Assembly (NCBI RefSeq): GCF_011045215.1
Contig: NZ_CP049201.1
Source: Escherichia coli
Lineage (GTDB): Bacteria; Pseudomonadota; Gammaproteobacteria; Enterobacterales; Enterobacteriaceae
Direction: 5' to 3' (one strand)
Length of the DNA stretch: 64,000 nt
The notes under the pieces are model-generated. The model had not been told where the DNA came from. It saw only the letters and a program-made list of their open reading frames with translations, and did not search any database. Of the stretch, positions 9,248 to 63,555 are shown piece by piece. A program made the position numbers and the translations under genes. Each line of letters starts with the position of its first letter. Position 1 is the first letter of the stretch.

Positions 9248-9275
9248 ATGCTCTGTATAAGGATTATCCAATTCT

Positions 9276-9312
9276 AAAAAAAAGCCCGGACGACTGTTCG
9301 GGCTTGTCTTTT
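9276..9312. terminator. Bidirectional rho-independent terminator shared by ydbK (+) and micC (-)
   Basis: A8 run, hairpin GCCCGG-ACGACTGT-TCGGGC, then T-rich tract; read directly. Confidence 0.8.
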
Positions 9313-9385
9313 TATATGTTGGAAAATCAGTGGCAATGCAATGGCCCAACAGAAAATAAAATCTGTGACAATAAAGGCATATAAC
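9277..9385 (-). ncRNA. micC: MicC small regulatory RNA (Hfq-dependent, represses ompC)
   Basis: Minus strand reads GTTATATGCCTTTATTGTCACAGATTTTATTTTCTGTTGGGCC...CCGGGCTTTTTTT, matching the known MicC sequence; lies between ydbK and ompN as in K-12. Confidence 0.9.
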
Positions 9386-9612
9386 CCGCGCAGAATAACG
9401 TATAGAAAATTAAAAGTATAATTTTTATTTTGTATGTATTATCTTCGATACATTCACCAGACTTATTATCATTTCAGAGGAATTATTTGATTAAGGTTTT
9501 ACTTAAGGCGTAACAAATGATATTTATCGGCTAACTGAACTTCTCCTTTAGGATGTTTTCACTCCCCGAAATGGGGATCAAAGGCAAATAAAATAACTAA
9601 AGGATTTATTCA

Positions 9613-11785: not shown

Positions 11786-11815
11786 AAAATCCCCAGTTGT
11801 CAGCAACAACTGGGG
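11786..11815 (-). terminator. Rho-independent terminator after the HTH-peptidase gene
   Basis: CCCCAGTTGT-CAGC-AACAACTGGGG hairpin followed by a U-rich tract on the minus strand. Confidence 0.7.
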
Positions 11816-11873
11816 ATTTACTTTTCAGGCCCAAAAGACGTTCACTACGACTCTAGATGTGAGCATTTACGGG

Positions 11874-19838: not shown

Positions 19839-19850
19839 ATTTACTCCATT

Positions 19851-19876
19851 AAAAAACCCGCTTTCGCGGGTTTTTT
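19851..19876 (-). terminator. Hairpin terminator (bidirectional form) right after the cargo nuclease gene, inside the tail operon
   Basis: AAAAAA-CCCGC-TTTC-GCGGG-TTTTTT. Confidence 0.75.
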
Positions 19877-19878
19877 AC

Positions 19879-36439: not shown

Positions 36440-37768
36440 TTACAACTCCGCGTAATTACCGTGCGCGATGATCAATCCATAGGTGTAACAATCGAAAAGG
36501 TCATCAGCACGTTTATGCGCGTCTTTGTCTGCCAGGTGGAACCCGGCGATTTGTTTGATGAGGTGGTTTGCGGTTGTGCGCTTGAATGAAACGGTTTTGT
36601 CGTAAGCCTCGCGGGTAATTTTGCATTTACCCTGGTAATGGTGGCTGGAAGCCAGCACCGCGCGCTCGTCTTTCCCTTTGCTGGTTAACGCTGATTTAAT
36701 CGGCGTCATATCCCAGCCTTCGGTTTCCGCTTTCTGGTTGAGGATTGCGCCCATTGCGGCATCCTCCATGAATACCCCCTGACTCCCCAGGCGCGGGCGG
36801 CAGAGTTGCGCCAGCCGCTCGAGGTTGTCATAAACACCGGGGATATACTCAGGAAGCAGCGACGCTTTAATTTGCGTCACATCCCAGTCGATAACGGTCA
36901 GTTTCGGCTCATCGGAATACGTGGACTCATACGCGAAGTAAACCACGCCTGTCCCGTCGTTCTCCGTCCCGCCTTTCAGCGCCGTATCCATTACCGCAAA
37001 AATCATGTCGCAGTGTCGCGGCATCTCAACCGGCTGGCCATCCACCAGCAGCTTATCGACATCGAGTAACGCGTCTTTGGACCAGTCTACGAACTCTGCA
37101 AGATATTCCTGCTGCCAGACGCGCGGATCGGATTTCTTCTCCGTTTCCTCCAGTTCTTCTTTCGGAATATACGGATTCGATGAAGTTGGCGCATGGTGCA
37201 TAACAAATCCCAGGGATTCATCGTGGCATATCGCGTAGAAAAAATTGCTCTCGTCGATACCGTTTGGTGTGGAAAATACCCACGCACAGCCGCGGTAATC
37301 GACAAGCGTCGGGCGTATCGCTCGGGGCCAGATTTCCTCGAGCATTTCCGGCGATTTAGTGAATGCGGCCTCATCAATCAGCACAGCGTGATATTTACGC
37401 CCACGCCCGGCCAGTTTGTTATTGTCCGTTACCCAAAAGTCGATGCGCCCCCCATTACGGAGAATGATGCGCTTTTCATTTTTTGACTGACTGAGGATCA
37501 GCGGTTGCAGAACGGCGCTAATTTCATCCCAGATTTCCTGGTACTGGCGGTATTGCGCGGTAAAAATCCCCACCCTACCCGCGATAAGTTGCCCGGTGGT
37601 AGGAACGGCAAATTTCCGCGTAGCGAAACTGGTAGCGATGTTCACCAGCATCACCGTTTTACCCCAGCGACGACCACAGCATACCGCGTGGAAGCGTTCC
37701 TCTATTGCCGCCGTCCATGCAGCTATTTGCCCCTCATGAGGTTTTGGGAGGTAGATTTCAATCGACAT
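36440..37768 (-). CDS. Terminase large subunit
   Basis: 442 aa; Walker A (CGRRWGKT) near N-terminus; C-terminal nuclease-like region. Confidence 0.85.
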   Translation of the reverse strand: MSIEIYLPKPHEGQIAAWTAAIEERFHAVCCGRRWGKTVMLVNIATSFATRKFAVPTTGQLIAGRVGIFTAQYRQYQEIWDEISAVLQPLILSQSKNEKRIILRNGGRIDFWVTDNNKLAGRGRKYHAVLIDEAAFTKSPEMLEEIWPRAIRPTLVDYRGCAWVFSTPNGIDESNFFYAICHDESLGFVMHHAPTSSNPYIPKEELEETEKKSDPRVWQQEYLAEFVDWSKDALLDVDKLLVDGQPVEMPRHCDMIFAVMDTALKGGTENDGTGVVYFAYESTYSDEPKLTVIDWDVTQIKASLLPEYIPGVYDNLERLAQLCRPRLGSQGVFMEDAAMGAILNQKAETEGWDMTPIKSALTSKGKDERAVLASSHHYQGKCKITREAYDKTVSFKRTTANHLIKQIAGFHLADKDAHKRADDLFDCYTYGLIIAHGNYAEL

Positions 37769-38849
37769 TATCCACTCCCGGCATCGGCAGAGAGTTGTGG
37801 ATAATTATTTCGTTATTCTCACCACCCACGCCTTTTTTGAGGTTTTCAATCTCAGTGCGCAGCTTTTCGTTGCGAAGCCTCAGTCCTTCAAGCTCCAGAT
37901 CATTGCGACTGTCAGTTGCACCACCAGCAGAACTTCCTTTCGTCGCCATTATCAGCTTGATAAGTTCGCGCCGGGCGGCAGCCTTATCCTCCAGCAGGAT
38001 CTCAACACCAAATTTCCCGAGCTTTGCCCCTGCATATAATTGTCGCGCATCCCCATCAAGCAGAGTGGTATCAGCCATATAAAGCTGTCCCGTTCCCTCA
38101 CCGCAGCACTTCGGACAATCCGGATTGGGTATGGCGTTATCAACAAAGCCGAGGCCTCCATATTCCGGCTCGGGTTTGCCATCTCTGGAGGCCTGTGCCG
38201 CTGCCTTATCGAATTCTGCAATATCACGCCACTGGTAGAGGTGATTCTCGCCCCAGCAATAACGGCAGTTAACACGGCGAAATTGTGCCAACTGATTGGG
38301 GTCGGCCTGGACAATGGCCATCAACTGACTCACCAGTAAATCCAGGTCTGCGGTATAGCGTTTCTGATACTGATTGCGGAAGTAGCTGATAGCACGATAA
38401 ACCCTGGCATTTCTAAGCATACGGCTGGCGTTGCTGTTAGCTGTCGCACCTTGCCCCTCATAACCAGCCAGTCGGTATGCCTCTGTCGGCTTTTTCCCCT
38501 GAGCAACAAGCATCGCAAACTTAGCCTGCTGGTCAGAAATGCCGAATTCATCGGGGCAGAACGAAAATTCCTCCGCGTCGCCCTCATTCAGGCACGCATC
38601 GGATACTGGCTTTTTTTTCTGAGATTTTCCGTTCCGCTTTTGCGCAGTCTGCGCAGATTTTTTCTGCGCACTTTGTTGCGCAGTTTTGCGCATTTCTGTC
38701 TGCGCATTTTTCGGAGGTTTTTTGATGTAACGACGGGCTGTTGCGTAATTCAGTCCCCTTGCCTCACACCATGCCACCGGGGATACACCGGAGCGGGTGT
38801 ATTCAGCAATATATTCCTGCTGCAACGCCCCCCAGTCCGGTCTGCTCAT
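37758..38849 (-). CDS. Terminase small subunit (HTH N-terminus)
   Basis: 363-aa ORF overlapping the TerL start; N-terminal HTH, basic linker, coiled-coil C-terminus. Confidence 0.6.
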   Translation of the reverse strand: MSRPDWGALQQEYIAEYTRSGVSPVAWCEARGLNYATARRYIKKPPKNAQTEMRKTAQQSAQKKSAQTAQKRNGKSQKKKPVSDACLNEGDAEEFSFCPDEFGISDQQAKFAMLVAQGKKPTEAYRLAGYEGQGATANSNASRMLRNARVYRAISYFRNQYQKRYTADLDLLVSQLMAIVQADPNQLAQFRRVNCRYCWGENHLYQWRDIAEFDKAAAQASRDGKPEPEYGGLGFVDNAIPNPDCPKCCGEGTGQLYMADTTLLDGDARQLYAGAKLGKFGVEILLEDKAAARRELIKLIMATKGSSAGGATDSRNDLELEGLRLRNEKLRTEIENLKKGVGGENNEIIIHNSLPMPGVDNVD

Positions 38850-39104: not shown

Positions 39105-39990
39105 TTGTCACCCCCATTGATATGCAGGGTGTCTTCTTCCTGTATTTTTCGTGAAGGATTTTTACTGCAGCGTTGTTCCAGGTGACCTGATGGTGAATGC
39201 GTTTATGGCTGGCCCCCATCAGTGAGATTTTTACGCACGAGGGCGCATACATGACGGAGTAAAAACTTTTAACGTAGGTTCCGGAATCCAGATACAGCTC
39301 GGTCATTCCGCCGCTGTTTTTCTGCGTCTGTTTCTGCCCTAACTGGACAGCACCGATCGTCATAAACAATTCACCACAGCGACCGAGATTCGTGTACGTA
39401 TTCACATCCTCGTTAATGCGCCCCATGAATGAGAACGGTCGATCAACCGAACAGATAAAGCTGTTCATTGCCTTGCGTTTCACCCACGAAGCATGGCCGC
39501 CATTGTCACCAAGAAAATCCCCGCCCTGCGACATAGCGATGGAAAGCGCAGGTATTGATTCGTAGTACGCCAGCATTTCAGAAAGGATCGCATCCAGTTT
39601 TCTTATCGGGAAATAGGCCTGGTCATAGTTGCGATCCACCCGAAACTGAAACTCGTGATAATCATCATCGAGCTGAATGAAGTATTTACACCCGACCAGT
39701 TTTGCCAGGTCGAAACAGGCATTACGGGCGTAAAAAATTGAGCGGCGATCACCGAAATTATCGGCTTCGTCAAAACGACTGGCTATATCGGCTTTGGAAA
39801 ACACCAGCACCTGTTCACCAAATTCAGCTATGTACTGATGCCGTGTCTTATCTTCATCATCAACAACGATAAAAATTTTCCCGGTATAGCCAGCACGACG
39901 CAACGTCCGGTAAGTCAGAACTTTGTCCGGTCGCCCGTGAGTCAGAATAAAGGCGCAAAAATCATCACGCATATTCCTCCTCCCCGCCAT
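39040..39990 (-). CDS. Hypothetical protein with glycosyltransferase-like (GT-A-like) motifs
   Basis: N-terminal FILTHGRPD and later DDD motif (IQLDDDY) suggest a nucleotide-sugar transferase fold; alternative ATG at 39972. Confidence 0.4.
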   Translation of the reverse strand: MAGRRNMRDDFCAFILTHGRPDKVLTYRTLRRAGYTGKIFIVVDDEDKTRHQYIAEFGEQVLVFSKADIASRFDEADNFGDRRSIFYARNACFDLAKLVGCKYFIQLDDDYHEFQFRVDRNYDQAYFPIRKLDAILSEMLAYYESIPALSIAMSQGGDFLGDNGGHASWVKRKAMNSFICSVDRPFSFMGRINEDVNTYTNLGRCGELFMTIGAVQLGQKQTQKNSGGMTELYLDSGTYVKSFYSVMYAPSCVKISLMGASHKRIHHQVTWNNAAVKILHEKYRKKTPCISMGVTNDSVFESRVSGSVPDDCTTNR

Positions 39991-40753
39991 GCATGATCTC
40001 CACCATACGCTGCGTCATCCGGACAAAACCATTTTCGATGGCTTGCTGATAATCAATGATCACCAGTGCCGACTCCTCAAAAAGGCCCTGAATTTCAGCG
40101 GGGGCGTGAGCGTAATAGTCTGCAATTCTGCTGAAATTAAACACCGTGTGGCGTTCTGCCGCGCACAGGAGGAATTTTTCGATATCAGGCTCAAGGGACG
40201 CCGTACGTATCCGGCTGACCAGCTCCTGAGTTTTCGTATCGTCGTACAGTTCACTGATATCCGGTTCATCCCCTGACGGCTCATAAACAGGCGTATCAAT
40301 TTTCGTCGTGTACGGCTCATCCTCATTCGCTGTACCTGGCAAAACATCCGTTAATAGTTCGTCAATTTCTGTCGGGCAGAATCCTGTCAGGGAGATATCA
40401 AAATCAGCATTGATTAGGTCCGACAGCTCCATCCGTAACAGATCTTCATCCCAGCCAGCACTCATCGGCAGGCGATTATCAGCCAGGCGGTACGCCTTTT
40501 TCTGATCATCCGTCAGACCAGACAGAACAATGACCGGAACCGAATCCATTTTGAGCGCCTCAGCCGCCATAACACGCCCGTGCCCCGCAATAATTTCACC
40601 CTTTTCATCAATCAGCACCGGATTTGTCCAGCCGAATTGCTTAATGCTTTCAACCAGCTGTGTCACCTGTTCAGGAGAGTGTGTCCTTGCATTGTGCACA
40701 TACGGAGACAACTCTTGTAACAGTCGATAGACAATATTCAATTTTTCGCTCAT
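39965..40753 (-). CDS. ParB-like nuclease domain protein
   Basis: Track ORF 39965..40840; ATG at 40753 with GAGG upstream; ParB/Srx-type N-terminal motif ...TNPVLIDEKGEIIAGHGRVMAA... Confidence 0.75.
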   Translation of the reverse strand: MSEKLNIVYRLLQELSPYVHNARTHSPEQVTQLVESIKQFGWTNPVLIDEKGEIIAGHGRVMAAEALKMDSVPVIVLSGLTDDQKKAYRLADNRLPMSAGWDEDLLRMELSDLINADFDISLTGFCPTEIDELLTDVLPGTANEDEPYTTKIDTPVYEPSGDEPDISELYDDTKTQELVSRIRTASLEPDIEKFLLCAAERHTVFNFSRIADYYAHAPAEIQGLFEESALVIIDYQQAIENGFVRMTQRMVEIMHGGEEEYA

Positions 40754-41113
40754 ACAACCTCGCTTTATGAATAAAAAACTAACAGCAGCCAGTGGAGAGC
40801 ATTTATCATTAACATTTACAGATAAGATGACGTACATCATTGAAACGCCATTAAGCTATATACCTGCAGCATTTGTAGTTGCACTCCGCAACTCTGCGAC
40901 TACGGTTATAAAAGCATTGGCAACTTTTGCCACCGGCAAATCTTCCATGGATTTCCTCTGCCGGTTTTTTATTTTCGTCGATGCATAACATTGCATTTAC
41001 ATCAATACCGTCTATTGTCATAAGTATGTTGTACCGATGCTCGGGTGATATTGGCGGTCTTCGCCAGCCGGTTCTGTGTAGTTGCTCCCTGTGACCGGTT
41101 TTTTATTTCTCAC

Positions 41114-41148
41114 ATTACAGCAGCCCCTCACCAAAGGGCTGCTGTAAT
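41114..41148. other. Perfect 13-bp inverted repeat (ATTACAGCAGCCC / GGGCTGCTGTAAT), 9-nt loop
   Basis: Read directly; no U-run on either strand, so not a canonical terminator. Confidence 0.5.
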
Positions 41149-41226
41149 GCCTGCTGTTACTCACAAATCAGACCATCATGATCACCGCTCATCCCTGGAC
41201 TGTTCCCGCAGTCGGAGTTTTGTTTT

Positions 41227-41586
41227 TCATTTACTGGTATGAGTTCTGCATCGGGCTATTTCATTCCGGGCCTTACTGTCACCGCGACAGATACAACGCA
41301 CCGTGTCTCCGGTCAGCGTGGTAATGTAAGCCTCATCCTCTTTTTCTACCGAAATACATGGAATATCCCAGCCCCGGCAATACTCAATTTTTGCTGCCAA
41401 GTGAGTGTCACGCGGATAGAACTCCAGACGATACATATCCCCCAGGACATGCACTTCCTCAACCTGACGGCCATCTTTAGTTACCGTTATTTTTTTCAGT
41501 GCGTACATACGTACCTCCGTTCTTTCGTTTTTTGAGTAATAAAAAAGGCCGCCACAGCGACCTTTGCCAGTACGTTTACAAACCAA
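41227..41586 (-). CDS. Hypothetical Cys-containing protein downstream of endolysin
   Basis: 119-aa track ORF (internal start MYALKKITV... possible); no Rz-like features. Confidence 0.35.
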   Translation of the reverse strand: MVCKRTGKGRCGGLFYYSKNERTEVRMYALKKITVTKDGRQVEEVHVLGDMYRLEFYPRDTHLAAKIEYCRGWDIPCISVEKEDEAYITTLTGDTVRCICRGDSKARNEIARCRTHTSK

Positions 41587-42121
41587 CGCGCGCTTTCATC
41601 CAGCCATAGACAAACGACTCATTGGCCTCGCGTTTCTCTGCCAGCTCCAGATAACGCTCGCCCTGCGTACAGTTCAGGGCTTTCACCAGTACCAGTTCAC
41701 CATCCCTGCTGCGATTTTTCAGATATGCCCGTAACGCATTAAGAGTACGCGGCCCGATGCGTCCATCTGCATCCATATCCGGATAGAGTTTCCCGCGCAG
41801 GTTGAAAACGTTCAGCCAGCGTTGAAGCATTCTGGACGCCACAGTTGGCCCCATGTTCACGCCCGTATCGCACAACTCTGAGGCAATATCCGGAGACAGG
41901 TTCGCAACCAGGTCGAATCGTGGTCCGTACCAGTAGTCCGCCTCGAGTATTTCCAGCGCCTGCTCACGCGTCAGGTCACGCATATCGCCATGATAACCGT
42001 GTGCGCGGGCAACTTTTTCAGTAATGCCCCATCTGGTCGGTCCACCTTTATCATCCGGATGATTGATGTAACCGCCCTCTTTTCCCAGAATTTCGTCAAA
42101 AATTTCATCTTTCGACTTCAT
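41576..42121 (-). CDS. Endolysin, GH108-type muramidase with peptidoglycan-binding domain
   Basis: Track ORF starts at TTG; ATG at 42121 gives MKSKDEIFDEILGKEGGYINHPDDKGGPTRWGIT..., characteristic GH108 N-terminus. Confidence 0.85.
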   Translation of the reverse strand: MKSKDEIFDEILGKEGGYINHPDDKGGPTRWGITEKVARAHGYHGDMRDLTREQALEILEADYWYGPRFDLVANLSPDIASELCDTGVNMGPTVASRMLQRWLNVFNLRGKLYPDMDADGRIGPRTLNALRAYLKNRSRDGELVLVKALNCTQGERYLELAEKREANESFVYGWMKARVGL

Positions 42122-42122
42122 A

Positions 42123-42413
42123 TCAGCGCCTTCGTAATACAAGGATTTTTGATACGTTCCCGCGTGCTCGTATCACCAGCACGCAGAACACCAGGTTAAT
42201 CAGGACGACCAGCCAGTTACCGGGTGGAAAGCGACCACACAGATAACAAAGCGGCGCAAAGGCATAAAGCAGCATCAGCAGCCAGGCCAGCCACGACATC
42301 AGCGGTTTATGTCTCGACTCACCACGACGATAAAAAAAGAGCGTCAGCACGATAACCGTGCTTAACACCACATTCAGTAATCCGGGAAGGTTACTTAACA
42401 TTACCGCCTCCAC
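42123..42413 (-). CDS. Putative lysis membrane protein (second holin/antiholin-like)
   Basis: 96-aa hydrophobic ORF between holin and endolysin. Confidence 0.4.
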   Translation of the reverse strand: MEAVMLSNLPGLLNVVLSTVIVLTLFFYRRGESRHKPLMSWLAWLLMLLYAFAPLCYLCGRFPPGNWLVVLINLVFCVLVIRARGNVSKILVLRRR

Positions 42414-43277: not shown

Positions 43278-43349
<72 letters not shown>

Positions 43350-43352
43350 ATA

Positions 43353-43428
<76 letters not shown>

Positions 43429-58629: not shown

Positions 58630-58856
58630 GCGCAGCCACAAAGCTCACAGGAGAAAAACCAGTGCGATACACAAAAATTAAACCATGTCCATTTTGTGGT
58701 TGTCCATCAGTAACGGTGAAAGCCATTTCAGGATATTACCGAGCGAAGTGTAACGGATGCGAATCCCGAACCGGTTATGGTGGAAGTGAAAAGGAAGCAC
58801 TCGAAAGATGGAATAAACGAACCACTGGAAATAATAATGGAGGTGTTCATGTATAA
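58620..58856 (+). CDS. Lar-family restriction alleviation protein (RalR-like)
   Basis: 78 aa with zinc-ribbon motif KPCPFCGC...CNGCE typical of Lar. Confidence 0.6.
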
Positions 58857-59037
58857 AATTACCGCCACTATTGAAAAGGAAGGTGGCACTCCTACTAACT
58901 GGACAAGATATTCAAAATCTAAACTAACGAAATCAGAATGCGAAAAAATGCTCTCAGGTAAAAAAGAAGCGGGCGTTTCCAGAGAGCAGAAAGTAAAACT
59001 GATAAATTTTAATTGCGAGAAACTTCAGTCCTGGTGA
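58849..59037 (+). CDS. Hypothetical small protein
   Basis: Track ORF 58777..59037; internal start [10 protein letters not shown]... assumed. Confidence 0.35.
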   Translation: MYKITATIEKEGGTPTNWTRYSKSKLTKSECEKMLSGKKEAGVSREQKVKLINFNCEKLQSW

Positions 59038-63338: not shown

Positions 63339-63366
63339 AAAAAAAAGCCGACTCATCAAAGTCGGC
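63339..63366 (-). terminator. Rho-independent terminator ~190 nt downstream of zntB
   Basis: Minus strand: GCCGAC-UUUGAUGAG-GUCGGC followed by U8. Confidence 0.6.
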
Positions 63367-63555
63367 GTCGTACGAATCAATTGTGCTATGCAGTAATTCA
63401 AAAAAGGAAGTAAGACAATATGGAGCGCAACGCCCATCGCTTGACGTTGCATTCACCTGCAAGAGAGATATTGCCCTGAATGGGTAGAGAGTTTATTGAC
63501 TTCGCTCAAACTTTGCGGCGTTTTTGTATACAGACAGCCGGAAAAATTGCTTTTG

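Follow-up and report, generated by a model that had tools for sequence, protein, structure and literature searches.

A sharply bounded hairpin of about 40 nt at the lysis/packaging joint of Enterobacterales temperate phages: most likely a structured late-mRNA signal and a favoured point of module exchange

Intercistronic hairpins and boundary sequences already described

Phage genomes are mosaic, yet conserved sequences at the joints between their modules have rarely been documented. Susskind and Botstein reportedly postulated, in 1978, module "linker" sequences for lambdoid mosaicism, and boundary sequences have also been discussed for HK620 and for mycobacteriophages; to our knowledge, most mosaic joints of phages carry no such conserved sequence. 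The element that we describe here, found in a prophage of Escherichia coli, is like the postulated linkers in being a short conserved sequence placed exactly at the joints of unrelated modules, with very numerous combinations of flanks, but it differs from them in being a strand-specific covarying hairpin, which a linker working through homology does not need.

Judged by anatomy, the closest match would be the REP class. Like the REPs, the element is an imperfect palindrome of 35-40 nt with a conserved mismatch, which gives a very stable RNA hairpin devoid of U-tract; it is also extragenic, lies within an operon, often no more than 15 nt past the upstream stop codon, and has a sequence conserved across enterobacterial genera. 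Two articles report that REPs protect the upstream mRNA from 3' exonucleases and stabilise it (PMC12306157, citing Liang et al. 2015 and Newbury et al. 1987; PMC12320835) and that, where fewer than 16 nt separate a REP from a stop codon, ribosomes stall and translation decreases (PMC12306157, citing Liang et al. 2015; PMC12320835). The element departs from this class in occurring once per phage and being tied to one position, whereas REPs exist as hundreds of dispersed chromosomal copies. Its sequence is also unlike what we take to be the REP consensus, and we know of no association between it and a RAYT (TnpA-REP) transposase.

The RNase III sites of phages (T7 R1.1-type sites, lambda sib, the N-leader) offer another comparison. 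Substrates of RNase III comprise about two turns of double-stranded RNA, often with an internal loop at the cleavage site, and the sites of T7 are nicked at this internal loop, leaving a protective 3' hairpin. The likeness is that of an intercistronic hairpin in a long phage transcript, and it extends to the layout, in which a lower stem is followed by an internal loop, placed roughly a helical turn away from the terminal loop, and then by an upper stem of about 10 bp. The element differs in having a helix that amounts to only 17-19 pair equivalents and in keeping a near-invariant sequence, unlike the diverse RNase III sites.

The element is also reminiscent of the intra-operon intrinsic terminators of lambdoid phages, being a stable hairpin in a Q-antiterminated late operon; such terminators are known inside late operons and their role is acknowledged as unknown (PMC8022706). 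The attC sites of integrons are imperfect hairpins that bound gene cassettes and fold strand-selectively; for the element, strand asymmetry and some tandem copies around a cassette were observed, and most phages have a single copy. The attC R/L core GTTRRRY was not found in the element, nor was a shared neighbouring gene family found among the matches listed. Assignments to parS-like sites, cos/pac, attC, REP, intrinsic terminators or an Rfam family were each tried and rejected, the element lacking features by which each of them is recognized. It would be an intercistronic mRNA hairpin and a module-boundary sequence, both of them known kinds, with an unusually wide distribution and unusually sharp edges. 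The hairpin is most likely a structured signal of the late mRNA and, at the same time, a favoured crossover point for the swapping of modules.

The inverted repeat and its prophage

The window, i.e., the whole stretch of 64 kb that was analysed, is a segment of the E. coli chromosome containing a lambdoid prophage at the Rac site, flanked by FnrS, RalA and MicC. The prophage was placed at the Rac locus because these three RNAs were found, all of them at the Rfam gathering score:

9268-9388: MicC
58855-59033: RalA, the antitoxin sRNA of RalR
63343-63460: FnrS

The occupant of the site is here a full-length lambdoid prophage, as against the defective Rac of K-12. Its late genes lie on the minus strand and follow one another in the order two tRNAs, holin-like ORFs, GH108 endolysin, an ORF of 94 aa, a gap of 473 nt, a ParB/Srx-like gene, a GREB1-like gene and a small terminase of the Terminase_2 type. 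The identities of the endolysin, the 94-aa ORF and the ParB/Srx gene were taken from near-identical annotated relatives. The features of this region are:

43278-43428, minus strand: two tRNA genes between the antiterminator region and the holin genes (tRNA-Gly and tRNA-Thr according to the annotation of the close relative L003)
41576-42142, minus strand: endolysin of glycoside hydrolase family 108 (GH108), marker of the lysis cassette, from the ORF and the annotation of matching relatives
41544-41565, minus strand: canonical intrinsic terminator AAAGGTCGCTGTGGCGGCCTTT followed by TTTATT, within the late operon and immediately past the stop codon of the endolysin gene; the hairpin lies about 400 nt further downstream
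41227-41509, minus strand: 94-aa ORF, a hypothetical protein in relatives and the last intact lysis-side gene, which stops 78 nt before the hairpin
39965-40753, minus strand: ParB/Srx-like gene, the first packaging-side gene here, 100% identical to the annotated ParB/Srx protein in L003 and starting about 360 nt downstream of the hairpin
37758-38849, minus strand: small terminase, Terminase_2-type

The inverted repeat sits inside the 473-nt gap. The original prediction of a perfect 13-bp repeat at the boundary between lysis and packaging modules proved right as to the place, and each arm is one base longer than had been noted: the arms CATTACAGCAGCCC (41113-41126) and GGGCTGCTGTAATG (41136-41149) are 14 nt long, 100% complementary and separated by 9 nt, with the GH108 endolysin and the 94-aa ORF on one side and the ParB/Srx gene on the other. 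The repeat is real and non-random. Perfect inverted repeats of at least 11 bp with a loop of 3-20 nt are present at only five loci of the 64-kb window, and by our estimate a perfect 14-bp repeat with such a loop is expected by chance about 0.004 times in 64 kb (64000 x 18 / 4^14). Elsewhere in the window, other perfect inverted repeats have 18-bp arms TAACTAATTCGCGTTGCA (127-167) and 14-bp arms AAATCCCCAGTTGT (11787-11819), and a 12-bp repeat at 19850-19877, flanked by A/T, resembles a bidirectional terminator.

The RNA of the minus strand, which is that of the late genes, folds at -30.6 kcal/mol (z = -5.5, with 0 of 200 shuffles equally good) and that of the plus strand at -25.1 kcal/mol. On the minus strand, the stem is prolonged by U.G, U-A and U.G to reach 17 pairs closed by a 3-nt loop; on the plus strand, the same extension positions are C.A mismatches. 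A covariance model of the element scores 49.4 bits on the minus strand and 41.7 bits on the plus strand and finds a single copy in the window. With this fold the element possesses the GC-rich hairpin of an intrinsic terminator (-30.6 kcal/mol, z = -5.5) but the defining U-tract is missing: there is no U-run 3' of the hairpin on either strand of the window, and, among the matches listed, only 11% of 158 members have five or more T within the 8 nt that follow, so that the early judgement that this is unlikely to be an intrinsic terminator still stands. The T-run of the plus strand precedes the hairpin and corresponds to an A-run after the hairpin on the minus strand. The local anatomy is as follows:

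41113-41152, minus strand: junction hairpin element, reading AGG + CAUUACAGCAGCCCUUUGGUGAGGGGCUGCUGUAAUG on the late strand
41145-41149 with 41113-41117, minus strand: lower stem
41143-41144 and 41118-41119, minus strand: place of the CA/GA internal loop of the family, paired CA/UG in the window copy
41133-41142 with 41120-41129, minus strand: upper stem, including two U.G pairs
41130-41132, minus strand: triloop
41157-41192, minus strand: putative remnant of the 3' end of a lost upstream gene, 36 nt, ATG AGC GGT ... GAG TAA, encoding MSGDHDGLICE-stop
41095-41108, plus strand: 14-nt direct repeat CCGGTTTTTTATTT, copy 2, which reads AAAUAAAAAACCGG on the late strand, a few bases past the hairpin
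40961-40974, plus strand: 14-nt direct repeat CCGGTTTTTTATTT, copy 1

In other phages (L009, L045, L070, L072 and L077), an intact gene homologous to the remnant reaches the hairpin, with ...MSGQHARLIRE-stop, then CAGG, then the hairpin; the homology of the segment 41157-41192 to that gene is suggested by a by-eye count of about 75% identity along 39 nt. On the other side, the AAAUAAAAAACCGG tail after the hairpin is common to the contexts of the phi458/cdtI type, and phi458 and cdtI have the hairpin with its tail fused straight to the sequence lying past the 40961-40974 copy. It follows that the lineage of the window carries 134 extra nt, at 40975-41108, and that a second mosaic joint adjoins the hairpin.

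Two motifs made of a hairpin and a T-run lie at 40932-40974 and 41066-41108 on the plus strand, antisense to the late genes, and each ends in CCGGTTTTTTATTT. These CCGG...T-run motifs fold weakly (-13.5 kcal/mol with z = -1.8 for one, z = -0.1 for the other) and could be terminators of antisense transcripts or simply the A-rich tail of the late-strand element. Another observation concerns the motif ACAGCAGSC, of which all four copies of the 64-kb window, for 0.81 expected, fall inside the intergenic region 40782-41157: three are in the hairpin and its upstream half-repeat and the fourth, at 40782-40790 on the plus strand, is just upstream of the ParB start codon.

Distribution, edges and pairing of the family

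When BLAST was run with the surrounding 951 nt, a piece of 69 nt comprising the hairpin and short flanks matched alone in otherwise unrelated prophages and in phage phi458. The family was collected by three pattern scans of IMG/VR, which together gave at least 240 occurrences; the motif of about 40 nt, (A)GG-CAUUACAGCAG...CUGYGAUAAUG, is carried at the least by more than 240 viral contigs. The late-strand consensus reads (A)GG-CAUUACAG-CAG, followed by the upper stem and loop and by CUG-YGAUAAUG. Two types of upper stem are met: CCCUUC-NNN-GAGGGG, the E. coli/Salmonella type, which is also that of the window, and GCAUUC-NNN-GAGUGC, commoner across Klebsiella and many further genera. Named carriers are phiP27, Fels-1, cdtI, phi458, several Klebsiella phages and one Edwardsiella phage. 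Wherever the genes are annotated, the element is on the late strand, with lysis-side genes before it and HNH, cos or terminase genes after it. The repeat of the window is thus its copy of a sharply bounded hairpin of about 40 nt which Enterobacterales temperate phages carry at the lysis/packaging joint.

A scan of one genome per species gave about 30 positive species, among them Pectobacterium, Yersinia, Serratia, Pantoea and Edwardsiella; all belong to Enterobacterales, in five families, bar one hit in Eubacterium, which forms no stem and serves as a control for chance matches. The 37-mer core is frequently identical across genera. The original prediction had proposed to look at conservation in related phages, and would have been refuted by an element absent or unconserved in close relatives with the same gene order; the element turned out to be kept far beyond close relatives. 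Genomes of E. coli which have it carry it at one to three places each, and it is absent from the Qin and DLP12 prophage regions of K-12. Two phage records labelled with hosts outside the enterobacteria, PP818812.1 (Actinobacillus phage vB_Apl-pPE4) and OM284015.1 (Elizabethkingia phage EKP1), contain the enterobacterial element at 95% and 85% identity, respectively, and their host labels or the purity of the isolates may be worth checking.

Rfam 15, run on the whole window at gathering thresholds, reported nothing at 41113-41149, and at E up to 10 on 40600-41700 the sole overlap was a chance-level match to mir-2329 (17 bits versus a gathering score of 90). In the searchable literature outside subscription journals, the sequence of the element (as DNA or RNA, on both strands) was found in no paper, and no description of it was found in the literature on lambdoid boundary sequences and late-operon hairpins. 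The prophage "Pas" sRNAs (bioRxiv 10.64898/2026.05.13.724894) were considered and set aside, as they lie between the Q and holin genes, which is a different place.

The edges of the element are abrupt. Over 178 non-redundant contexts, among the matches listed, the information content goes from about 0.2 to more than 1.5 bits within three positions at the border between AGG and CAUUA and is back to about 0.3 bits directly past GAUAAUG; in the same contexts, conservation per position passes from background to more than 90% within 2-3 nt at the element edge. Right up to these edges, the flanks are unrelated. Across 239 occurrences, also among the matches listed, 41 families of upstream ORFs and 69 of downstream ORFs (the latter including some spurious ORFs) form 124 combinations, so that the element coincides with mosaic joints. 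Upstream neighbours include DUF2560, DUF826 and KilA-N proteins, and downstream neighbours include an HNH endonuclease with Terminase_4, Terminase_2, a Nu1-like DUF1441 protein and a TerS without Pfam match. No neighbouring gene family is shared, within 3.5 kb on either side, by more than 42% of the loci among the matches listed, and therefore any phage-encoded partner is not adjacent.

The position relative to genes is just as regular. In about 185 of the 239 occurrences, 0-11 nt separate the stop of the upstream ORF from the element, and the next ORF starts at a median of 34 nt past it, both among the matches listed. The 14 nt ahead of the element contain a stop triplet in 161 of 178 contexts (among the matches listed), versus about 44% expected by our estimate, and the flanking genes are co-stranded with the element at 107 of 115 loci (among the matches listed). 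In six contigs (L136, L138, L151, L183, L192 and L196), two copies 354 nt apart surround an ORF for a predicted membrane protein of 63 aa; the paired copies have only the core of about 39 nt in common (e.g., L136 9612-10003), an arrangement resembling a gene cassette.

Joints of this kind are what one would expect from a pure DNA recombination linker, a reading in which the element has no RNA function, its 40 bp being kept uniform by homologous exchange (Red, RecET or RecA) between co-resident phages or prophages, and productive module shuffling being limited to the phages that share these 40 bp, according to the "linker" idea of Susskind and Botstein. The arrest of flank homology at the element edges in 178 contexts and the 124 upstream/downstream combinations (in both cases among the matches listed), the cassettes bracketed by two copies and the joint at the adjacent 14-nt repeat of the window all speak in its favour. 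The identity of 37-43 nt is within the range used by phage recombinases; the arms used in lambda Red recombineering are of 35-50 nt.

The pairing of the element bears on the same question. The alignment consisted of 52 distinct cores of 37 nt, for which the structure (((((..((((((((((...))))))))))..))))) was tested. Over these 52 cores, 98.2% of the pairing cells form a pair versus 29-48% with partners slid by 1-3 columns, and the covariation score is above those of all 500 shuffles, in a shuffle test which ignores relatedness. Pair 12-26 is GC in 30 cores, CG in 11, GU in 9 and UA in 1, and pair 14-24 is AU in 37, CG in 11 and GU in 1. The upper stem covaries from CCC/GGG to GCA/UGC, the Edwardsiella version has an additional G-C pair inserted in both arms, and some variants present CUU...AAG with a tetraloop in place of UUC...GAG. 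The part of the pairing test that concerns the upper stem is unbiased because the search pattern had left the upper stem unconstrained. The switch between CCC/GGG and GCA/UGC may represent one or two evolutionary events only, and template switching can itself make compensatory changes without selection (bioRxiv 10.1101/2021.04.15.439925).

The strands are not equivalent. G.U cells number 90 on the late strand versus 9 on the opposite strand, the pairs which the search pattern had not fixed can form in 96% of cases on the late strand versus 74% on the other, and the late-strand RNA is the more stable in all three versions that were folded. The roughly tenfold excess of G.U on the late strand suggests that the hairpin forms in RNA, within the late transcript. 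A DNA linker needs identity, not a hairpin, and leaves the compensatory pairing unexplained, as it does the 10:1 bias of G.U towards the transcribed strand, the internal mismatch kept despite recurrent "correction" and the close spacing to stop codons. As the only role of the element, we find it rather unlikely; as a second role, it is compatible with the favoured reading as a signal in the late mRNA.

Invariant parts and possible roles of the hairpin

Another of the IMG/VR scans, in which only the upper stem was fixed and the rest was left free, gave at least 136 occurrences, and the great majority of them keep both the CAUUA/UAAUG lower stem and the 2x2 loop (C.A, A.G). The U.G pair 15-23 is retained in 46 of the 52 cores, while the 3-nt loop is freely variable. 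The mismatch of 2 nt in the stem is conserved in more than 90% of the family members among the matches listed. The internal loop is closed on its 3' side (GA to UG) in the window and in L038, L106, L114, L251, L272 and L290, and on its 5' side (CA to UC) in L274 and L277; perfect forms make up about 3% of the E. coli type among the matches listed. The repeat of the window looks perfect because its internal loop has been closed by the change of GA to UG and, judging by comparison with its relatives, this perfection is a rare derived state that is atypical of the family.

Two adjacent changes which perfect a quasipalindrome are a signature of template-switch mutation (PMC7202029). The window copy would have undergone a loop closure of the kind made by such switching, and the gene that once abutted it would also have been lost. 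The CA/GA mismatch of the family appears to be maintained against this mutational pressure. The hexamer CAGCAG, which we take to be the site of the type III restriction enzyme EcoP15I, is found in the 5' arm of every family member (41117-41145 in the window), and the inverted CTGCTG is added only in the perfected variant, e.g., that of the window, creating an inverted pair of sites. Avoidance of such inverted pairs could be one candidate reason why the mismatch is usually kept.

Retention of the mismatch also bears on a role at the level of transcription, which we hold to be improbable. The element would be either a pause site or weak terminator for Q-unmodified polymerase, insulating the packaging and head genes, or, through the sequence TG(C/T)GATAAT of its 3' arm, a weak promoter of the extended -10 kind or a sigma-70-dependent pause. 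TGnGATAAT is in register with an extended -10 and more than 90% conserved among the matches listed, the need for an A at the second position of the hexamer would explain why CA/GA is retained, the downstream start codon is at a median distance of 34 nt (among the matches listed) and, in L021, L034 and L075, a true terminator comes directly after the element. A U-tract is, however, lacking in 89% of the members among the matches listed, there is no -35 element and a promoter scan called none; a promoter would need neither a complementary 5' arm nor covariation in the upper stem, and the variant TGTAAT of the window would destroy the key -10 position and yet is kept in several lineages.

The original prediction had also suggested a packaging-related signal, i.e., a part of cos or pac read by terminase; the element does lie upstream of terminase genes, in the same general region as the cos of cos phages, but its distance to the terminase gene ranges from about 20 nt to more than 900 nt, at least four unrelated types of small terminase follow it (Terminase_2, Terminase_4 with HNH, DUF1441/Nu1-like and a TerS without Pfam match) and the annotated cos of phiP27 is about 430 nt further on, so that we give this role hardly any credence. 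The suggestion of a binding site for the adjacent ParB-like protein, which could call on the ParB/Srx gene some 360 nt downstream in the window and on the inverted repeat, a form common to many protein sites, fares no better, as only 7 of 223 occurrences among the matches listed have a ParB-like gene in the 3 kb downstream of them, the element is otherwise unchanged where this gene is missing, no family is common to more than 42% of the loci (among the matches listed) and the strand asymmetry favours a single-stranded form. Four further candidates were dropped: a MazF (ACA) site in the internal loop, a dif/Xer-like site and a K-turn, for which the sequence has no supporting feature, and a SECIS-like recoding signal, the stop codons varying between UAA, UAG and UGA.

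The remaining option of the original prediction, an RNA processing site, is plausible and close to our best reading. We propose that the hairpin has a post-transcriptional role, uncoupling the lysis-side from the packaging-side mRNA as a REP-like or RNase III-type intercistronic element, and assign to this reading a probability of about 0.45; from pairing and polarity we infer that RNA is the functional form, and from the likeness to known elements that the mechanism involves processing or stability. In such a scheme, the hairpin would act as RNA within the Q-dependent late transcript, where it would fold into an AU-rich lower stem of 5 bp (CAUUA/UAAUG), a 2x2 loop CA/GA, an upper stem of 10 bp with U.G and a variable 3-nt loop. 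Being very stable, it would block 3'-to-5' exonucleases, or else it would be cut in or near the internal loop, and in both cases the fate of the lysis-side message would be separated from that of the packaging and head message. A hairpin set against the stop codon might moreover lower the translation of the upstream gene, an effect which probably does not apply in the window, where the nearest intact ORF is 78 nt off.

Since near-identical stretches of 40 nt are present in unrelated phages, they would also offer a homologous crossover point for the exchange of lysis-side and packaging-side modules. This recombination role finds direct support in the flank data, and it may coexist with the RNA role or be the whole story.

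The helix consists of 5 bp, the 2x2 loop and 10 bp, with 1-2 bp more in half of the contexts, and its 17-19 pair equivalents are at the short end for substrates of RNase III. Neither a generic exonuclease barrier nor an RNase III site would require a near-invariant lower stem and internal loop; such invariance suggests a specific, probably host-encoded partner, or homogenisation via recombination. A bolder version of the mRNA-signal reading, which we regard as doubtful, would make the element an order-wide cis-acting RNA motif whose lower stem, CA/GA loop and U.G are read by a conserved host factor that sets expression of lysis versus morphogenesis genes, the same motif serving also as a module linker. 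If true, it would provide a testable instance of the linker hypothesis of Susskind and Botstein in which the linker also works as RNA.

For the window itself the significance is modest, as it holds one slightly atypical copy, and the interest lies in the family: hundreds of phages of five enterobacterial families, unrelated in other respects, share one motif of 40 nt, with signs of RNA structure, at the joint between lysis and packaging genes. If functional, it would be a new family of structured RNAs for late-gene control and would give a handle on how lysis and virion genes are balanced within one transcript of 20-25 kb. It would also be a defined site at which modular exchange can be tested, of relevance to toxin-converting phages such as phiP27 and Stx2k, and a landmark for prophage annotation, marking the end of the lysis and accessory genes and the start of the packaging module.
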